Part shown: piece by piece, positions 7,251-59,915 of the stretch | Layout of the letters: the number at the start of each line of letters is the position of its first letter | Position numbering within the stretch: the first letter of the stretch is position 1 | NCBI RefSeq assembly: GCF_030684315.1 | Contig: NC_081370.1 | Location: forward strand, 21,659,578-21,723,577 | DNA: 64,000 bases | Source: Stegostoma tigrinum | Lineage: Eukaryota | Direction: 5' to 3' | Notes under the pieces: generated by a model | Databases searched by the model: none | The model's input: only the letters and a program-made list of their open reading frames with translations | What the model was told of the DNA's origin: nothing | Position numbers and translations under genes: made by a program

Positions 7251-8761
7251 TTTGATGCTGTTTTCTTATTCTTGAACACCCTTTCCCTTCCTGTCCCTTA
7301 ACAGCAAAATATTACAGATGCGAGGAAGCTGAAACAAGCCCAGAGAATGCTGGAGAAATTCAGCAGGTCTGGCAGCATCTATACAAAGAGTTTTCTCCAG
7401 CATTTTCTGTGTTTGATCCCTTCCTGTCCCACACTGGCCATTATTATCAAAAAAGTTGCCTGGCAATGCCACTGTATCCATTTGTTTTGTAAGCCAATCT
7501 ATCTCTCCCCACAATCTTTGTCTGCTGTGGTGGCTAAGGTTTGACTTTAGATATAATTTAGAAATTTGTTTCAAATTTGAAACTGCATTAGTTTGTATTT
7601 CAAAATTCTACTGCAATTCATTAACATGATCGCAGATTTTGAGTTAAACTTTAGACTTCAATATGCTGCAGTTTCGTCGAGTGTGTTTCTTACAGCTGTC
7701 ATTGCAGCCAGTGGACTGATGTATTGTTACTTCTGCTTTATTTGCGTCAGCATTACATCCATATTTTGCCAGCATTTCTATGGATGGCGCTAGATAAACC
7801 AGGCAAAATCTGCTGAAGTATAAAGTAAAAATTATGAATGGAATTAAGGGGGAGACGGATGTGAGTATTAAGATTTCAAGTGATAGGGCTCCGTGACTAT
7901 TTTCTCTAGCAGCATGTTCTATTGTAAGACTGTCCTTGGGAATAAAGACTGTTGATACATAGTTTGAAAAAAATGGTCTTCGTACTTTGTATGGCTGGTA
8001 TCTCATATTTTGTCATTGCTAAAAGGCACCAGGAACTTGTTTCTGTCAATTCTAACCAGCCCATTTCATATTTTACAGAACATGATGGGTCTATTTTTGT
8101 CTTTCTTGTAGTGCCTCCCATTCCAATTTTTTTTAAAATCAAAGATGTAACACTGGTGTGCTTCCTATACTGATTTTGTGCAGAATTATAGAAGCCCCAC
8201 AATGTGAAAGCAGTCCATTCGACCCATCAAGTCCACAATGACCCTCTAAAGACCTTTCCTACTCAAGAATTGAAATTGTTATCACTGAGCCAAGGAAGAC
8301 ATCTTAGATATTTGTCTGTGTTGTGTGGTGGACAGTTATTAATACAATACAGATACATAACATATATTGAGAATACAATACAGGATAAGACCATTAAGCC
8401 CAGCTAGTCTGTGTTTGTTTTATGCTTCACACAAATCTCAACCTATTCCGTGTACTTCTCAATTTTTCAGCATTCCTTTGTAATTTTCTTTCCCCTCACA
8501 CACTCAACTTGCTACTTTTTGAAATGATCTATACTATGTGCCTCCATTATACCTGATTCCAGCAAGTTCCATATATTAATTACTGAAAAAAAGTCTTTTT
8601 TACTGGATTTAACAGAAACTATCATGTATTTTTGGATTTCCAAATAAGAGAAGTGTTTTCTTTACAGCTACTCTATCAAACGCCTAAAGGTAAAGACTTC
8701 CATTGGATCACCACTAATTTTTTTTTGTATAAAATGTCCAAACCTGTTCAATCTTTCTAGT

Positions 8762-8925
8762 ACAAAAACAGAAGTTGCTAGAGAAGCTCAGCAGGTCTGG
8801 CTGCATCTGTGAAGAGAAATCAGAGTCAACATTTTGAGTCTGAAGACCCTCTGTCAGAAAAGAGCTTTTCCAGCAAATTCTGTCTTTATTTTTGATTTAC
8901 AGAATCTGCAGTTCTTTTGTTTTTT
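8762..8925. mobile_element. Fold-back Penelope-terminus-derived element, older family (related copies at about 7300-7410 and 56032-56182)
   Basis: acaaaaacagaagttgctagagaagctcagcaggtctggctgcatct followed by an inverted copy of the terminus. Confidence 0.6.
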
Positions 8926-9625: not shown

Positions 9626-9674
9626 TTACTTCCAGCGGCCACCAACTTTGCCCTTGCCAGCACCCTTCTTGCTG
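9626..9674 (-). CDS. TNNT3: TNNT3 terminal coding exon (SKKGAGKGKVGGRWK*)
   Basis: tttgtag|C AGC AAG AAG GGT GCT GGC AAG GGC AAA GTT GGT GGC CGC TGG AAG TAA. Confidence 0.96.
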
Positions 9675-9867
9675 CTACAAATCACAAGCAAAAAAAAAAT
9701 TGTCAACCTCTAGTACTTAAAATCCAGTAGATGCCCTCTCTTGTATAACAAACAAAACTGGCTCCAGATACAAGTGCAAAAACAAAAGGATCTCCAGTGG
9801 CCTTTACAAATTTTGGCTGGAATTATCAGCTAAGTAGAGGGTGAAAACAAACAGGTCAGAAGTCTTA

Positions 9868-10328
9868 TAATAACAAGGTGCAGAGCTGGATGAACACAGC
9901 GGGCCGAGCAGCATCAGAGGAGCAGGAAAGCTGATGTTTCGTGTCTGGACCCTTCTTCAGAAATGGGGGAGGGGAAGGGGACTCTGAAATAAGTAGGGAG
10001 AGAGGGGGAGGCGTATGGAAGATGCATAAAGGAGAAGATAGGTGGACAGGAGACAGGCAGGTCAAAGAAGCGGGGTTGGAGAGAGTAAAGGTGAGTTTAG
10101 GTGGGGAGCTAGGGAGGGGATAGGTCAGTCAGGGGAGCATGGACAGGTCAAGGACGCGGGGTGAGGTTTTTTGGTAGGAGATGGGGGTGTGGCTTGAGGT
10201 GGGAGGAGTGGAGAGGTGGGAGAAAGGACAGGCTAGAGAGGCAAGGATGAGCTGTCTGGTCTGCTGTGTACATCCAGCTCTACACTTTGTTATATTAGAT
10301 TCTCCAGCATTAGCACTTCCTACTATCG
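9868..10328 (-). mobile_element. Penelope 3'UTR/pLTR fragment with inverted terminus
   Basis: Reverse complement of the 37000-37358-type sequence (purine-rich tract); degenerate hammerhead core at 9931-9960. Confidence 0.75.
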
Positions 10329-35239: not shown

Positions 35240-37358
35240 AGGTAATGGGAACTGCAGATGTTGGAGAATCCGAGATAACAAAGTGTAGAGTTTGATAAAC
35301 ACAACAGGCCAAGCAGCATCTTAGGAGCACCAAACCATCATCTCCCAAACCATCCACAACCTCATCACCTCAGGTGACCTCCCACCCACAGCCTCCAAAC
35401 TCATTGTTCCCCAACGCCACACCACCTGCTTCTATCTCCTTCCCAAAATCCACAAACCTGCCTGCCCTGGTCAACGCATTGTCTCCACCTGCTCCTGCCC
35501 CATCGAACTCATCTCCACCTATCTGGACTCCATCTTCTCCCCCTTGGTGCAGGAACTCCCTGCCTGCGTCTGTGACACCACCCACGCCCATCGACCTCCT
35601 CCAGAACTTCCAATTCCCCGGTCCCCAACACTTCGTTTTTACTATGGATGTCCAGCCACTATACACCCGCATTCCCCATGCACATGGCCGAAAGGCCCTC
35701 CACTTCTTCCTGTCCCACAGGCCCAACCAGTCCCCCTCTACTGACAGCCTCATCCAACTAGCCGAACTTGTCTTCACCTTCAACAACTTCTCTTTTGATT
35801 CCTCCCACTTCCTACAGACAAAGGGGGTGGCCATGGGTACCTGTATGGGCCCAAGCTATGCCTGCCTCTTTGTAGGTTACATGGAACAATCCCTCTTCCG
35901 AAGCTACACTGGCTCTAAACACCACCTCTTCCTCCGCTACATTGATGACTGTATCGGTGTCGCCTCATGCTCCGACGAGGAACTCGAACAGTGCATCCGC
36001 TTCACCAACACCTTCCACCCCAACCTCAAGTTCACCTGGACTATCTGTAACACCTCCCCCACCTTCCTGGACCTTTCTATCTCCATCTCAGGCAACCACC
36101 TAGAAACCGATATCCATTTCAAGCCCACCGACTCCCACCAACCTTCTTGCAAAAATGCCATCTCCTATTCTCAATTCCTTCGCCTCCGCTGCATCTGCTC
36201 CCAGGATGAGACATTCCACTCCTGTACATCTCAGATGTCCTCATTTTTCAAGGTCCGCAACATCCCCCCCCACCCCCCGCAGTGGTCGAGAATGCCCTCA
36301 ACCGTGTCTCCCATATTTCCCACAACTCAGCTCTCATGCTCTGTCCCCACAATAACAACCAAAACAGAATCCCCCTCGTCCTCACATACCACCCCACCAA
36401 CCTCTGGATCCAACGCATCATCCTCCGACACTTCCGCCATCTGCAATCCAACCCCACCACCAAAGGCATTTTTTCCTCCCCACTTTGTCTGCTTTCCTGA
36501 GGGACCACTCTCTCCGTGACTCCCTTGTCTGCTACACACTCCCCTCCAACCCCACCACACCCGGCACTTGTCCCTGCAACTGCAGGAAGTGCTACACCTG
36601 GCCCCATACCTCCTCCCTCACCCCCATCCCAGGCCCCAAGAAGACTTTGCACATCAAGCAGATTTTCACCAGCACCTCTGCAAATGTGGTATACTGCATC
36701 AGCTGTACCCATTGTGGCCTCCTCTACATCGGGGAAACCAAGCAGAGGCTTGGGGACCACTTTGCAGAACACTAATGCTCGATTCGCAATAAACAACTGC
36801 ACCACTCAGTCACAAACCATTTCAACTCCTCCTCCCATTCCTCAGATGACATGCCCATCCTGGGCCTCCTGCAGTGCCACAACGATGCCACCCGAAGGTT
36901 GCAGGAACAGCAACTCATATTCTGCTTGGGAACCCTGCAGCCCAATGGTATCAATGTGGATTTCACAAGCTTCAAAATCTCCCCTCCCACTACTGCATTC
37001 CAAAACCAGTCCAGCTCATCCCCACCTCCTTAACAGTTCATCCTCTCACCTATCCCTTCCTCCCACCTCAAGCCGCACCCCCTTTTCCTACCTAATAACC
37101 TCATCCTGCCCCCTTGACCTGTCCATCCTTTCCGGACTGACCTATCCCCTCCCTACCTCCCCACCTACACCTCTACTGGCTCCATCCCCACCTCTTTAAC
37201 TTGACTGTCTCCGCTCCACCTATCTTCTCCTCTATCCATCTTCGATCCACCTCTCCCTCCCCCTTTCTGATGAAGGGTCTTGGCCCGAAACTCAGCTTTT
37301 GTGCTCCTAAGATGCTGCTTGGCCTGCTGTGTTCATCCAGCTCCACACCTTGTATTAT
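35240..37358 (+). mobile_element. Penelope-like retroelement (RT plus GIY-YIG endonuclease), 5'-truncated, frameshifted, with inverted terminal segment
   Basis: ORF 35374..36519 (FTMDVQPLYT, KGVAMGTCMGPSYACLF, LRYIDD); ORF 36485..36775 (NVVYCISCTHCGLLYIGETKQRLGDHFAEH); 35240-35330 is an inverted copy of the 3' pLTR. Confidence 0.93.
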
Positions 37359-40696: not shown

Positions 40697-40714
40697 CTTC
40701 TTCAATAACCTCTT
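40697..40714 (-). CDS. TNNT3: TNNT3 18-nt cassette microexon (EEVIEE)
   Basis: ctatag|AAGAGGTTATTGAAGAAG|gtatgt; paralogous to 46367-46384. Confidence 0.8.
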
Positions 40715-43700: not shown

Positions 43701-44350
43701 GAAATTATTGGTCCAGTCAGGAAATTAGTTGAGGGGAAATGGAATGATGGGGACGTACTCTAATTGGCAGAATGTGATGAACTTATACTATATTAATTAT
43801 TTGTTAACTTAGGTTTTGGGATGGAAAGTTTATCCAAATGATACAAAAATAGATGGTATTGTATGAAACACGAGTGGAAGTGTCAAATCAGAAAATGATA
43901 TCTGATTATATATATTTCTTTATATCCAGAATAGCAGGCAAATTGGGAGTAGACAAAGCTCTAGTTTGACTACATCTAGTGTACCGTGAGCATTTCCTGA
44001 CACTACATTTCAGGAAGGCGATATTGGCCTTGGAGGAAGCACAATGTAAGTTCGTCAGGATGGCAAGTGGACTCTGTCAAACAATGGAAACTAGTGCTGT
44101 GATTTAAATGAATAAGGGTGATTTGGTCAAAGTTTTCAAAGTGGTACAGGAAACAGTTAGGATTTATTACTTGTGGCAACTGGCAGTAGGAGGCACAGTC
44201 TAACAATTAGCACCAAACCTTTCAGGTGTGAAATGAAGAAACACACCTTCATGTTGAGAATGGTAGAATTTTAGTGCTGTCTTCCAGATACAACAATTCA
44301 TGTCATATCAATTGCCATTTTATAACTGAAGTTCACATATTTTTGATAAG

Positions 44351-44588
44351 TGATAATGGGAACTGCAGATGCTGGAGAATCCAAGATAATAAAATGTGAG
44401 GCTGGATGAACACAGCAGGCCAAGCAGCATCTCAGGAGCACAAAAGCTGACGTTTCGGGCCTAGACCCTTCATCAGAGGATGAAGGCTCTGATGAAGGGT
44501 CTAGGCCCGAAACGTCAGCTTTTGTGCTCCTGAGATGCTGCTGGGCCTGCTGTGTTCATCCAGCCTCACATTTTATTATCTTGGATTC
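44351..44588. mobile_element. Young palindromic Penelope-terminus-derived element
   Basis: Arms 44377-44478 and 44487-44588 are reverse complements with one mismatch and an 8-nt spacer; sequence matches the pLTR of 35240-37358. Confidence 0.92.
44485..44520 (+). ncRNA. Minimal type I hammerhead ribozyme motif (mirror copy on the minus strand, 44445-44478)
   Basis: ggct-CTGATGA-a-GGGT-ctag-GCCC-GAAAC-GTC-agct: core boxes, stem II, loopless palindromic stem III, GUC cleavage triplet ending at 44516. Confidence 0.7.
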
Positions 44589-45325
44589 ACAGATTTTTGT
44601 TAGTCAAATGTATTAAATGGCATGGGCAAAGATGGATATGTGGAGTTAACAGCCACAAACTTACGGAATAACATAAAAGGATTGAGGGCTAAATGAACAA
44701 CTCCTGTTAGTATTTTCCCATACATTGCCAGAATTCTGGTTGCAATGTCCCTATCACTCAGCTCCCCTTCTCCTAAACTCTGTTTTGGTTTTGACACATT
44801 AAAAAGATGTCAGTATAATTTAGATTATATTCTGTAGGTAAACACTTGTTCACAGCAGTCAGTTCCCCTCTCAATTTGAAGCCAGTCTCTTGACTCCCAT
44901 GTATTAAATCTGTGTCCAACTGTTTTCCTCCAGATAGCCCCACTAAGAAAAGATCTTTATTAGAATTTGAGCATGTTTTTTCTCTTCTAACGAAGTTTTA
45001 ACAAACAGGAAGTTTACAATAAGCATCCTTACAATAGGTTGTGAAATTATTTGTTTTTGAGTAATGTCATAGTTATCGCTAATTAATGAAGCCCAAATAT
45101 CAATCAGACAAGTACCTCAGACGTGAATAGGGCCCAGTTAAGATAGTGCTAAGTGGGAATAGAGCAAGAACAGAGTAACAAATCTCTATGCAACTATGTT
45201 AACATAGTTTACCAAGGCAGGAGAGTTAAAATGGTCCCCATTATCACTAAATCCAAATTTCCCAAAATATACCTAGTCCAAATGTTTCCTGAAAAGGAGA
45301 ATTGGACTAACAGACAGCAACATAC

Positions 45326-45343
45326 CTTCTTCGATGTATGCTT
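45326..45343 (-). CDS. TNNT3: TNNT3 18-nt cassette microexon (EAYIEE)
   Basis: tctcccag|AAGCATACATCGAAGAAG|gtatgt; phase 1-1. Confidence 0.78.
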
Positions 45344-46366: not shown

Positions 46367-46384
46367 CTTCTTCAGGAACCTCTT
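46367..46384 (-). CDS. TNNT3: TNNT3 18-nt cassette microexon (EEVPEE)
   Basis: cttcag|AAGAGGTTCCTGAAGAAG|gtatgt; phase 1-1. Confidence 0.82.
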
Positions 46385-48813: not shown

Positions 48814-49179
48814 CTGTAATCCAACACGAGAGATAATAGTTGATGATTATTCGCAGCAAACTCTGACTTCATCACTTTAACTGCCCTCACCATGGGTATC
48901 AAATACAAGCATCATGCAGAGAATTCTGAATAATTAGCCAGGTGTAAACCGAAAACACTGAACCACTCTACTTAGATGATCCCATCTTTCATCCCTAATC
49001 TGACCAAAATTAATCTCTCTCATTTAGAGCATAATCTGGGACAGTACACTTTGTCATAACCTCCTAAACTGAACACAGAAAAGAAAAACCATCCAGAAAT
49101 CTCAGTCAGCGACCCCTGTAAGAATATGCACAAATAAAAAGCTCAGGTCAGAACAGGATCAGATATGATCATGAGGTGG

Positions 49180-49328
49180 TGGGAACTGGCAATGCTGGAG
49201 AATCTGAGATAACAAGGTGTAGAGCTGGATGAACACAGCAGGCCAAGCTGCATGACCAAGCTCTCCTGCTCCTCTGATGTTGCTTGGCCTGCTATGTTCA
49301 TCCAGTTCTACACCTTGTTATCTCAGAT
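49180..49328. mobile_element. Short fold-back Penelope-terminus element lacking the ribozyme core
   Basis: atctgagataacaaggtgtagagctggatgaac ... gttcatccagttctacaccttgttatctcagat inverted arms. Confidence 0.85.
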
Positions 49329-55260: not shown

Positions 55261-56722
55261 CTTCAACTGAGCCCTTTAGATCTGCAAGAACCAAAGAGAG
55301 AATATCAATGAGAATGGCCTACATGGACCATCCTCTTCAGTTTTACAATTTAAAGAATGCGTTATGTAATGAAAACCACCAACAGAAATAGCCTCACTAA
55401 CAGTGCAGAGCTAATGTCGCCTTTTTTGATATTGTCAACAAACATTCAGGCAAAATAGCCCGGCCGTTAATACAGGAATCCGAGTAGCTGCAGTAGCAGC
55501 TTTCCATAGAATTGACACCTCTCTGATCTATCCATACACTGGTGGAAATATCCATTTATATTTTCTGCACGGCCCATTTGGGAATAGGAACGTAAGATGG
55601 TGGGCTCTGTTCCATTTCCCTGATACGCACAGTGGCTGGAATAGGATGAGGAATATCTTGGAAATATACCTCAACAATAGTTTCGAACTTTCCTGTGCGT
55701 TCTGGATTTGTCTTTTTTCCCGAAAAGATTTGCGGGAAAGAAAGCTGCCCACTCTCAAACAGCATTCTTGATTCATTCCAAGTCGAGGGGACCGGACAAG
55801 GAAAGCAACATTCAGGGGCACTATCCGGTAAAACGGTTTTCCAGACAAAAGGACGCCTCCTCAGTCAAAGAGGTTCTCCCGTTGTTTCTCGTTTGGGAAA
55901 AGCCGCCAGCATCGATGTCCTGTAGCGTTTACGCCGTTCTCGCTTCCCTTCCGCTGAAGTTAGGACGGAAGATTCTGTGTAAATTCGCTTTCCGCGACAA
56001 CTCGTGTGCTTTAACATTTTTTAAAAATATCAAGCAGCGCACTGGGGATGCGGGGAGATCTGAACTAAAAACAGAAAACTGCTGGAGAAACTCAATAGGT
56101 CTGGCAGCATGTGGGAGGGCTAGAAACAGAGTTCGTGTTTTGAGTCCGATATAACTGCTGAGTTTCTTCAGCACTTTTCTGTCCGTCATTGGAAGCATGG
56201 CAGGAAATCCCTTTTCATGCTCGTCCCGCAGACATAGTTATATTTCTTTGGCATGTTGCCTGGTATTTGACCTGATAATATCGGTTCGTGGTGGGGTACT
56301 GTACTAAACCTGACTTTAGAACCCTGCACTCTGCTCGTTCTAGCGTGAGGAGTGAGGGTCTATGTAACTGTAGGGCATGGCAGTCAAGGCTTGGCTGAGA
56401 TCTAACATAGAGAAAAGACGGTAGGCACCTGCTGGTTTTGTGTACCTCAGGTACAAAGCTGAATGAGGAAAAAAAATCGTTTTCTAATACTTGAGCTGAT
56501 TATTGCACGTTCTTATGGTACAACACCCCCAAAACAATCTCGGTATGTGAAAACAATATAAAAATCTCAAATTTCCTACAGTATATGAAAATGTGCATTC
56601 AAGGTGTATTTTGATGGCATCATTGATATAGAAACCAATAAAACAGATGTACTGATGTAGAAAATGGACACAATTAAATCCAAATCAAATAAATGTCTCC
56701 ACTTGTCATGTTGTTTCCTTAC

Positions 56723-58705: not shown

Positions 58706-58777
58706 AGAAATTTCTGAGATAACAAAGTGTGGAGCTGGATGAACACAGCAGGCCAAGCAGCATCTCAGGAGCACAAA
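58706..58777. mobile_element. Penelope terminus fragment
   Basis: gagataacaaagtgtggagctggatgaacacagcaggccaagcagcatctcaggagcacaaaa. Confidence 0.85.
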
Positions 58778-59077
58778 AAAAATTTCTGCTGGTTTTGCAG
58801 GTGGTAGCCCAACCTTCACAGAATGAAATCCCCAAGGATAAATCATCAATATTTTCCCCTCTGAACTGTCCTGCTTTGTGCATTGTCATTGTTTTCAGAG
58901 CTTTTGTTTCTGATTTCCAGCATTTAATGTTTTATTTATTTAGCGTTATGCCCTCTCTGTGCGATCTGCGTGGGTGTCTATAAACAATCAATTTATTTAG
59001 CCAGGAATTTGACATTCAAACTACAGCGGATTATAGAATGTGCGCCTCCCATCTCCCCCAATCATGCTTTTGTTTTC

Positions 59078-59297
59078 TAAGATAACAAAGTGGATGCTGG
59101 ATGAACACAGCAGGCCAAGCAGCATCTTAGGAGCACAAAAGCTGACGTTTCGGGCCTAGACCCTTCATCAGATGATTCATTTTTCATTTCAAACGTCAGC
59201 TTTTGTGCTCCTGAGATGCTGCTTGGCCTGTTGTGTTCATCCAGCCCCACACTTTGTTATCTTGGATTCTCCAGCATCTGCACTTCCCATTATCTCT
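59078..59297. mobile_element. Fold-back Penelope-terminus element; intact hammerhead core on the minus strand (59140-59171)
   Basis: Inverted arms; minus strand reads ctgatgaagggtctaggcccgaaacgtcagct. Confidence 0.88.
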
Positions 59298-59775
59298 AAT
59301 GCTTTTGCTTTCTCTTTTGTTTTCCAAGGTATCCAAATATTGTAATAGCGAAGATTTAAGGAAACCTTGTTTCGATTTTAACACCGACATTTCAAATTAT
59401 AGATTGTCAACCGTCGATTGCAATGCTTGGCGTCTTGCAAAAAGAAAATCAATTGTTCAGTAGTAATTATATTTACGTAACATCTTAGTCAAATACGAAG
59501 AAAAGCTTCACTCAAGGACATCTACCCCAGTGGCAGCGTCTAACTTCAAGTCGTCTATTGTTCAGTTGAATGTACGGTTTAATTAATGTGCGGAATTAGC
59601 TAACAATCGTTTGAATTCCAACACACTTCCCCCCCCCCCCCCCGTTAATTCCACAAGATCTGATTCCCACCCCTCCACGGCACACAAACAGACACAACGC
59701 CCTCCATTATTGGCCCCACTCACACACATGTAGAACAGCCTCTCCTACAGACTAAGGCCAGAACTACCCAACTCT

Positions 59776-59915
59776 AAGATAACAAGGTGTAGAACTGGAT
59801 GAACACAGCAGGCCAAGCAGCATCAGAGGAGCAGGAAAGCTGACGTTTCGGGCCTAGACCACTCTTCAGAAATGGGGGAGGGGAAAGGGTTTCTGAAGTA
59901 AATAGGGAGAGAGGT
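59776..59915 (-). mobile_element. Penelope terminus fragment with a variant (CTGAAGA) core
   Basis: Same subfamily as 9868-10000. Confidence 0.82.

Follow-up and report, generated by a model that had tools for sequence, protein, structure and literature searches.

Insertions of Penelope-like elements (PLEs) are typically described, in the accessible text of two sources, as an inverted 5'-truncated copy with a one-sided tail of 30-40 bp, target duplications and palindromic junctions (PMC8557442; PMC3846280). For the Poseidon element PAc of Anolis carolinensis, the accessible part of the report states that both strands are cut and extended and that the tail is the stretch between two reverse transcription (RT) start sites; its hammerhead ribozyme cuts only with protein, and that part gives no RNA-seq ends at the cut (PMC11167929). 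The minimal PLE hammerheads published in 2014 conserve an extra base between positions 9 and 10.1 and, in the sections available, are inactive as monomers and weak as dimers; the same account describes minimal hammerheads in pairs, one on each strand, at distances of 100-700 bp (PMC4209133). In flies, siRNAs are produced from Penelope inverted repeats, according to the available text (PMC3681739). Retrozymes are defined, in the accessible portion of a preprint, as head-to-tail tandem units with a same-strand hammerhead (bioRxiv 10.64898/2026.07.22.740005). In a literature search with subscription journals, Repbase/Dfam and supplements outside its scope, no published PLE hammerhead family from a shark was found, nor, with subscription journals and supplements outside the search, any study of junctions at the PLE hammerhead cut site or of editing of PLE inverted repeats.

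The palindrome analysed here is best read, with a probability of about 0.88, as one insertion of a high-copy PLE in which two truncated 3' ends lie head to head, likely formed at integration and likely a dead end. The insertion is the shortest form of the published PLE arrangement, an inverted 5'-truncated arm plus a tail. As far as the accessible descriptions of EN+ PLE insertions go (Arkhipova et al. 2013, PMC3846280; Craig et al. 2021, PMC8557442), the head-to-head arms, the one-sided tail, the duplication, the variable truncation and the palindromic junction are the same, whereas here the arms are cut to about 100-130 nt and hold no coding sequence, and the family is dense, with 7 loci in 64 kb. 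The coordinates are collected in Table 1.

Table 1. Coordinates of the palindromic insertion, of related copies and of the neighbouring microexons. Positions refer to the window, the whole 64-kb stretch of DNA analysed.
Feature	Position	Strand	Remarks
Target-site duplication, left copy	44332-44345		14 nt, one mismatch to right copy
PLE tail, 34 nt	44346-44379	-	Left arm only; sister copy 59300 begins at the identical base
Left arm	44377-44478	-	Element 3' end, sense on minus, the troponin pre-mRNA strand
Minimal hammerhead core, pre-mRNA strand	44449-44476	-	C3 44476, C17 44449; stem I 2 bp; predicted cut 44449/44448
Junction insert, 8 nt	44479-44486		Exact inverted copy of 44467-44474; fold-back with 4-nt loop
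Right arm, tailless	44487-44588	+	Last 3 nt common with target duplication
Minimal hammerhead core, antisense to host gene	44489-44516	+	C3 44489, C17 44516; spacer supplies 9-bp stem I
Target-site duplication, right copy	44586-44599		14 nt, one mismatch to left copy
Longest copy	35241-37358	+	Tailed inverted arm, broken 5'-truncated RT + GIY-YIG frame, 11-nt duplication
Sister two-armed copy	59076-59300		Different junction, 15-nt duplication
Sister two-armed copy	49175-49322		Shorter arms, 16-nt duplication; right arm begins immediately 3' of hammerhead cut
Sister two-armed copy	9866-10328		Long tailless and short tailed arm, 11-nt duplication
Single-arm copy	58717-58778	-	11-nt duplication
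Single-arm copy	59773-59914	-	Duplication looked for, none found
Predicted 18-nt troponin T microexon, upstream	45326-45343	-	About 740 nt from element; splice motifs
Predicted 18-nt troponin T microexon, downstream	40697-40714	-	About 3.6 kb from element; splice motifs

The inverted repeat has 102-nt arms with a single mismatch (44422) and an 8-nt spacer, a geometry that the first-pass annotation had already given and that sequence comparison and folding reproduced. The same annotation had set the element at 44351-44588, and these limits did not hold: the true insertion covers 240 bases (44346-44585), as set by the flanking target-site duplication, which had been overlooked together with the tail. 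The 14-nt duplication was matched by none of 2999 random position pairs. The spacer is not the continuation of the parent element, since most family copies have purine-rich sequence after 44478 in the loose-end consensus; its fold-back match would occur by chance with a probability of about 0.7% within the insertion.

A chance hairpin was ruled out by the folding energy of the palindrome region (-214.5 kcal/mol, z = -28.7), as none of 200 shuffles was equally stable. An assembly artefact was also ruled out: contigs of runs X3 and X4 pass continuously from the unique flank into the element, crossing the boundary with no differences, and the target-site duplication is present. The miRNA and SRP matches in Rfam, which lie below gathering, are hairpin artefacts, and a miRNA gene was ruled out as well.

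The element is present in samples S1-S3 of organism A. In organism B (X9), a 6.5-kb contig aligns at 44278-44345 (68 nt) and goes no further than the final base of the left duplication. This contig likely represents the empty insertion site, although the 68-nt alignment could be a paralogue's.

Within the window, the family comprises 12 arms at 7 loci (E < 1e-5, a count that omits three weaker matches), and target-site duplications of 11-16 nt were found at six of them (null p <= 0.002). All five two-armed loci pair a single tailed arm with a tailless one; no two of them share an inner junction, and their arms measure between about 65 nt and 2 kb. The focal locus is the only one of these five with a whole hammerhead core in both arms; the two cores are a consequence of arm length, as each arm barely reaches far enough to include one.

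The longest copy identifies the family. It agrees with the focal arm at 86 of 91 matched bases and carries a mutated hammerhead core in its 3' end, and its broken frame gives RVT_1 (E 7.7e-7) followed by GIY-YIG (E 7e-4), both slightly under the Pfam cut-offs. Atlas matches of this copy are to RVT_1/HTH_animal clusters at 0.94-0.97, and a PDB search with the RT piece returned one uninformative match. The translation contains the CCHH motif of EN+ PLEs (PMC8557442), with two Cys within the GIY-YIG core and two later His, and a C-x3-C-x2-C motif precedes the endonuclease in a Cys-rich linker (36533-37027). A CX2-5CxxC linker at this place, between RT and endonuclease, characterises the Neptune clade (PMC8557442). 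This linker suggests, from the translated sequence, that the family belongs to the Neptune clade and not to Penelope/Poseidon; in this it differs from Anolis PAc, the pointer to Neptune being this motif. The focal copy itself has no ORF. Taken as a family, the copies show the features of EN+ PLEs: RT then a C-terminal GIY-YIG, the CCHH motif, an inverted 5'-truncated copy, a one-sided tail and duplications of variable length. The Penelope-like origin proposed in the first-pass annotation was therefore borne out by the RT and GIY-YIG remnants in a sister copy, the one-sided tail and the target duplications.

Other features of these copies should be mentioned. A stretch of about 300 nt in the longest copy (36950-37275) is pyrimidine-rich and ends just before the hammerhead core, with an AG following inside the core region; this resembles a splice acceptor, which would split the ribozyme. 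The 18-nt spacer of a sister palindrome (59173-59190) has no clear template nearby, its best 13-nt match lying 46 kb off. Distant short repeats at 7317-7400, 8886-8914 and 56047-56170, some with small inverted ends, show a weak likeness to the arms and are probably older PLE families.

Beyond the window, 133,698 contigs of run X3 align to a single arm, a figure that counts contigs, as summed contig depth was not taken as copy number. An exact-pattern search for further copies gave no match in metagenome contigs, viral contigs or prokaryote genomes. In the aligned contigs, outer loose ends with unlike flanks cluster at 44349/44352 (384 and 744 contigs) and at 44384 (617 contigs). Joints of a tail end to a tailless end on opposite strands were excluded, since contigs bounded by two neighbouring copies would produce them. 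The accessible text on Anolis PAc (Frangieh et al. 2024, PMC11167929) describes ends of two classes as well, separated by about 34 nt; they match a pair of RT start sites located 3' of the hammerhead. A similar 11-nt motif opens both outer end classes at the focal locus (44346-44356 and 44379-44389, 34 nt apart) and occurs also at 59290-59300, being clearer in the sister copies and in the loose-end letters than at the focal locus; possibly it indicates where the two RT start sites lie. An overlap of 3-6 nt with the target is seen at several tailless ends.

Integration of the focal copy would begin with a pair of nicks, one per strand and 14 nt from each other, made by the endonuclease of the element. 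Reverse transcription on element RNA would then be primed from each 3' end, the outer start site giving the tailed arm and the start site 34 nt further in giving the tailless arm. Both cDNAs would halt 2 nt upstream of the hammerhead core, on reaching a purine-rich tract, after which one cDNA end would fold back and copy 8 nt of itself, and the ends would then be joined. With respect to the halting point, three of nine truncated arms in the window (ends at 44474-44478 and 59172) and 5 of 11 X3 joint rows among those listed end within a few bases 5' of the core, at or near the start of the purine-rich tract. It is possible that this position is an RT stop or an RNA 5' end.

One step of this scheme could have taken another course, compatible with the PLE assignment, in which the first cDNA folded back, primed itself and so became the template of the second arm. 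A point against two separate primings comes from the focal locus, where both arms end at the same base (44478), and copying by fold-back is simpler than two separate stops. Moreover, the spacer is itself a fold-back copy, and self-priming has been proposed for head-to-head PLE palindromes, in the accessible text of PMC3846280. On the other hand, arm ends differ in four of the five two-armed loci, the arms of 59076-59300 differ at sites of common family variants, and both strands were extended in vitro, according to the available part of PMC11167929. The fixed pairing of one tailed with one tailless arm fits two start sites, and together with the unequal arms at four loci it favours two primings. 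Self-priming is regarded as a possible but doubtful sub-step.

The first-pass annotation had proposed that the palindrome could be a non-autonomous MITE-like or retrozyme-like unit, transcribed and re-inserted whole by PLE protein. Some observations agree with this: short copies flanked by clean duplications abound, the arms are 99% alike, three of nine truncated arms in the window end at 44477-44478, and non-autonomous PLE derivatives are in print (PMC8557442; bioRxiv 10.64898/2026.07.22.740005, accessible portions). Nevertheless, a self-propagating unit is not supported by the two-armed copies in the window, all five of which differ in inner junction and arm length. The sharing of spacers among copies, which that annotation had named as a check, gave the same answer: no junction is common to the five two-armed loci, and the focal junction is absent among the joints listed (15 of 54, with some X3 joints uncounted and short junction contigs possibly lost). 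The argument from unique junctions covers these five loci and the joints listed. The loose ends after 44477/44478 agree at 0.37-0.41 only, and in the longest copy arms of the same kind enclose remnants of the RT and the endonuclease. A perfect hairpin of 102 bp would also be a poor template for reverse transcription.

MITEs, as commonly defined, share with these copies a short, non-coding sequence, inverted ends, a high copy number and target-site duplications; unlike them, the present copies have asymmetric ends (the tail), a size and interior that vary from copy to copy and duplications of 11-16 nt, and their autonomous partner encodes an RT and not a transposase. Animal non-LTR retrozymes are likewise short, non-coding and PLE-related, with a type I hammerhead, but in the accessible part of the preprint the published ones are head-to-tail, direct tandem repeats with same-strand ribozymes (bioRxiv 10.64898/2026.07.22.740005), in contrast with the single inverted pair, tail and target-site duplication found here. 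Re-insertion as a whole unit is thus very unlikely.

Regarding the ribozyme, the first-pass annotation had described a minimal type I hammerhead core on each strand, and at the level of the motif this stands. In both cores a single additional A follows A9, stem II has 4 bp and stem III (ACGU) lacks a loop, and the minimal type I PLE motif is complete in its conserved core, the extra base after A9, G10.1-C11.1 and the palindromic 15.2-16.2. The accessible account of metazoan PLE hammerheads (Cervera and de la Pena 2014, PMC4209133) gives the same CUGANGA, extra base between 9 and 10.1, G10.1-C11.1, loopless palindromic stem III and opposite-strand pairs. The extra A, which had been listed as a caveat, is therefore a conserved feature of published PLE hammerheads, as far as that account goes (PMC4209133). 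The two systems differ in other respects described there: stem II has 4 bp and the native stem I 2 bp here, versus 7-8 and 4-5 bp in Schistosoma, although a 2-bp helix I is also reported for D. virilis, and the cores lie 12 nt apart here and 100-700 bp apart in the published pairs (PMC4209133). An Rfam scan to E 5, a hammerhead model search that the first-pass annotation had suggested, matched no hammerhead model; its 10 listed matches lie below gathering and are mostly hairpin-driven. The hammerhead assignment consequently rests on motif and context.

Stem I had been called short on both strands. This is right for the minus strand (2 bp) and not for the plus strand, where the spacer allows up to 9 bp, 3 of them G-U. 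Stem I has 2 bp in the two cores that keep the parental upstream context without deletion. The cut predicted earlier, after 44516, belongs to the plus strand and not to the troponin pre-mRNA; for the latter, the predicted site of cleavage by its own core lies between 44449 and 44448.

Folding pointed to inactivity of both cores at this locus. Forcing the active fold in full context costs 58 kcal/mol on the plus strand and 64 kcal/mol on the minus strand, compared with 8-10 kcal/mol in a lone arm. Whichever strand is transcribed, the antisense arm comes first, and in simulated growing transcripts the core pairs as it appears; the proposal that the core would pair with its antisense arm in transcripts of both polarities was thus supported by folding. 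In the troponin pre-mRNA, the antisense arm would be made first and would trap the emerging core, so the hairpin is predicted to mask it. The first-pass annotation had gone further, taking such self-silencing as the reason why the insertion is tolerated, and this is not needed. The pre-mRNA core is predicted to be inactive even without the antisense arm: with a 2-bp stem I, a penalty of 9.5 kcal/mol and a competing local 8-bp hairpin over its first bases, it can use, in the models, neither stem I nor stem III. The troponin T gene was found to hold no sense-strand core that is both intact and unprotected, the one at 9960 being mutated.

The host is the fast skeletal troponin T gene on the minus strand: Pfam Troponin was found on all four exon translations, and one exon has fast skeletal TnT as its top PDB match (E 1.3e-16). 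By resemblance, the DNA is probably that of a cartilaginous fish. The start exon lies near 55281 and the last exon near 9640, with predicted 18-nt exons at 46384, 45343, 40714 and 39907 between them. The location in a TNNT3 microexon region, as first annotated, was upheld, since the element lies between predicted 18-nt exons. The four microexons (46384-39890) are alike in sequence and splice context, and the surroundings of 46385 and 40715, and of 45344 and 39908, are similar; this suggests, at the level of sequence, a duplication of an exon pair. Three other insertions of the family lie in introns of the same gene, and the focal insertion is probably neutral like them.

A 102-bp RNA duplex is an ADAR-type substrate, and ADAR editing of the hairpin is plausible. 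The A>G differences seen in X4 and X15 carry no information on editing: they lie in the same places as in X3 and derive from other family copies. A role for the host, in which the hairpin was kept to mask a ribozyme that cuts the pre-mRNA or was edited and altered microexon splicing, is hardly credible: the core is fully paired in folding from the moment of transcription, the duplex is of the kind that ADAR edits, a microexon lies 740 nt away and the element is found in all of samples S1-S3, but the pre-mRNA core is predicted to be inactive without the antisense arm, the head-to-head form is the default of the family, the same gene holds 11 inverted pairs of at least 60 nt, and the element is likely absent in organism B.

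Apart from the origin of the palindrome, the junctions at the hammerhead cut site deserve attention. Among the joint rows listed (12 of 140), 11 come from X3, and in 4 of these the arm is left at 44448, immediately 3' of the predicted cut; each of the four continues with one T and then re-enters at an outer end, at an RT start site. For a preset site, the binomial chance of this lies between 3e-6 and 3e-4, assuming independent and unselected rows, which may fail. In the window, the right arm of 49175-49322 starts at the base equivalent to 44448 (49259); this is one of nine truncated arms and has a chance of about 17%. Among the loose-end rows listed (24 of 689), none lies at 44448. These joints could mean that the family hammerhead cuts in vivo and that the cut RNA is reverse-transcribed, leaving junctions at 44448. 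Such cutting is considered unlikely, as the native stem I has only 2 bp and a nested insertion could yield the same joints. If true, it would be genomic evidence for a role of the PLE hammerhead, which was unseen in the accessible text of the Anolis study.

Overall, the feature is likely a known by-product of PLE integration and not a new mobile unit or regulatory device. The single locus matters little: truncated PLE insertions are very numerous, and both its structure and its ribozyme motif have been published before. The high-copy family, in turn, is a large natural record of PLE integration. Enrichment of 5' junctions at the cut site, if present, would bear on the in vivo role of PLE hammerheads, and the family could also inform on a second point, the use of one RT start site per strand at every two-armed insertion.
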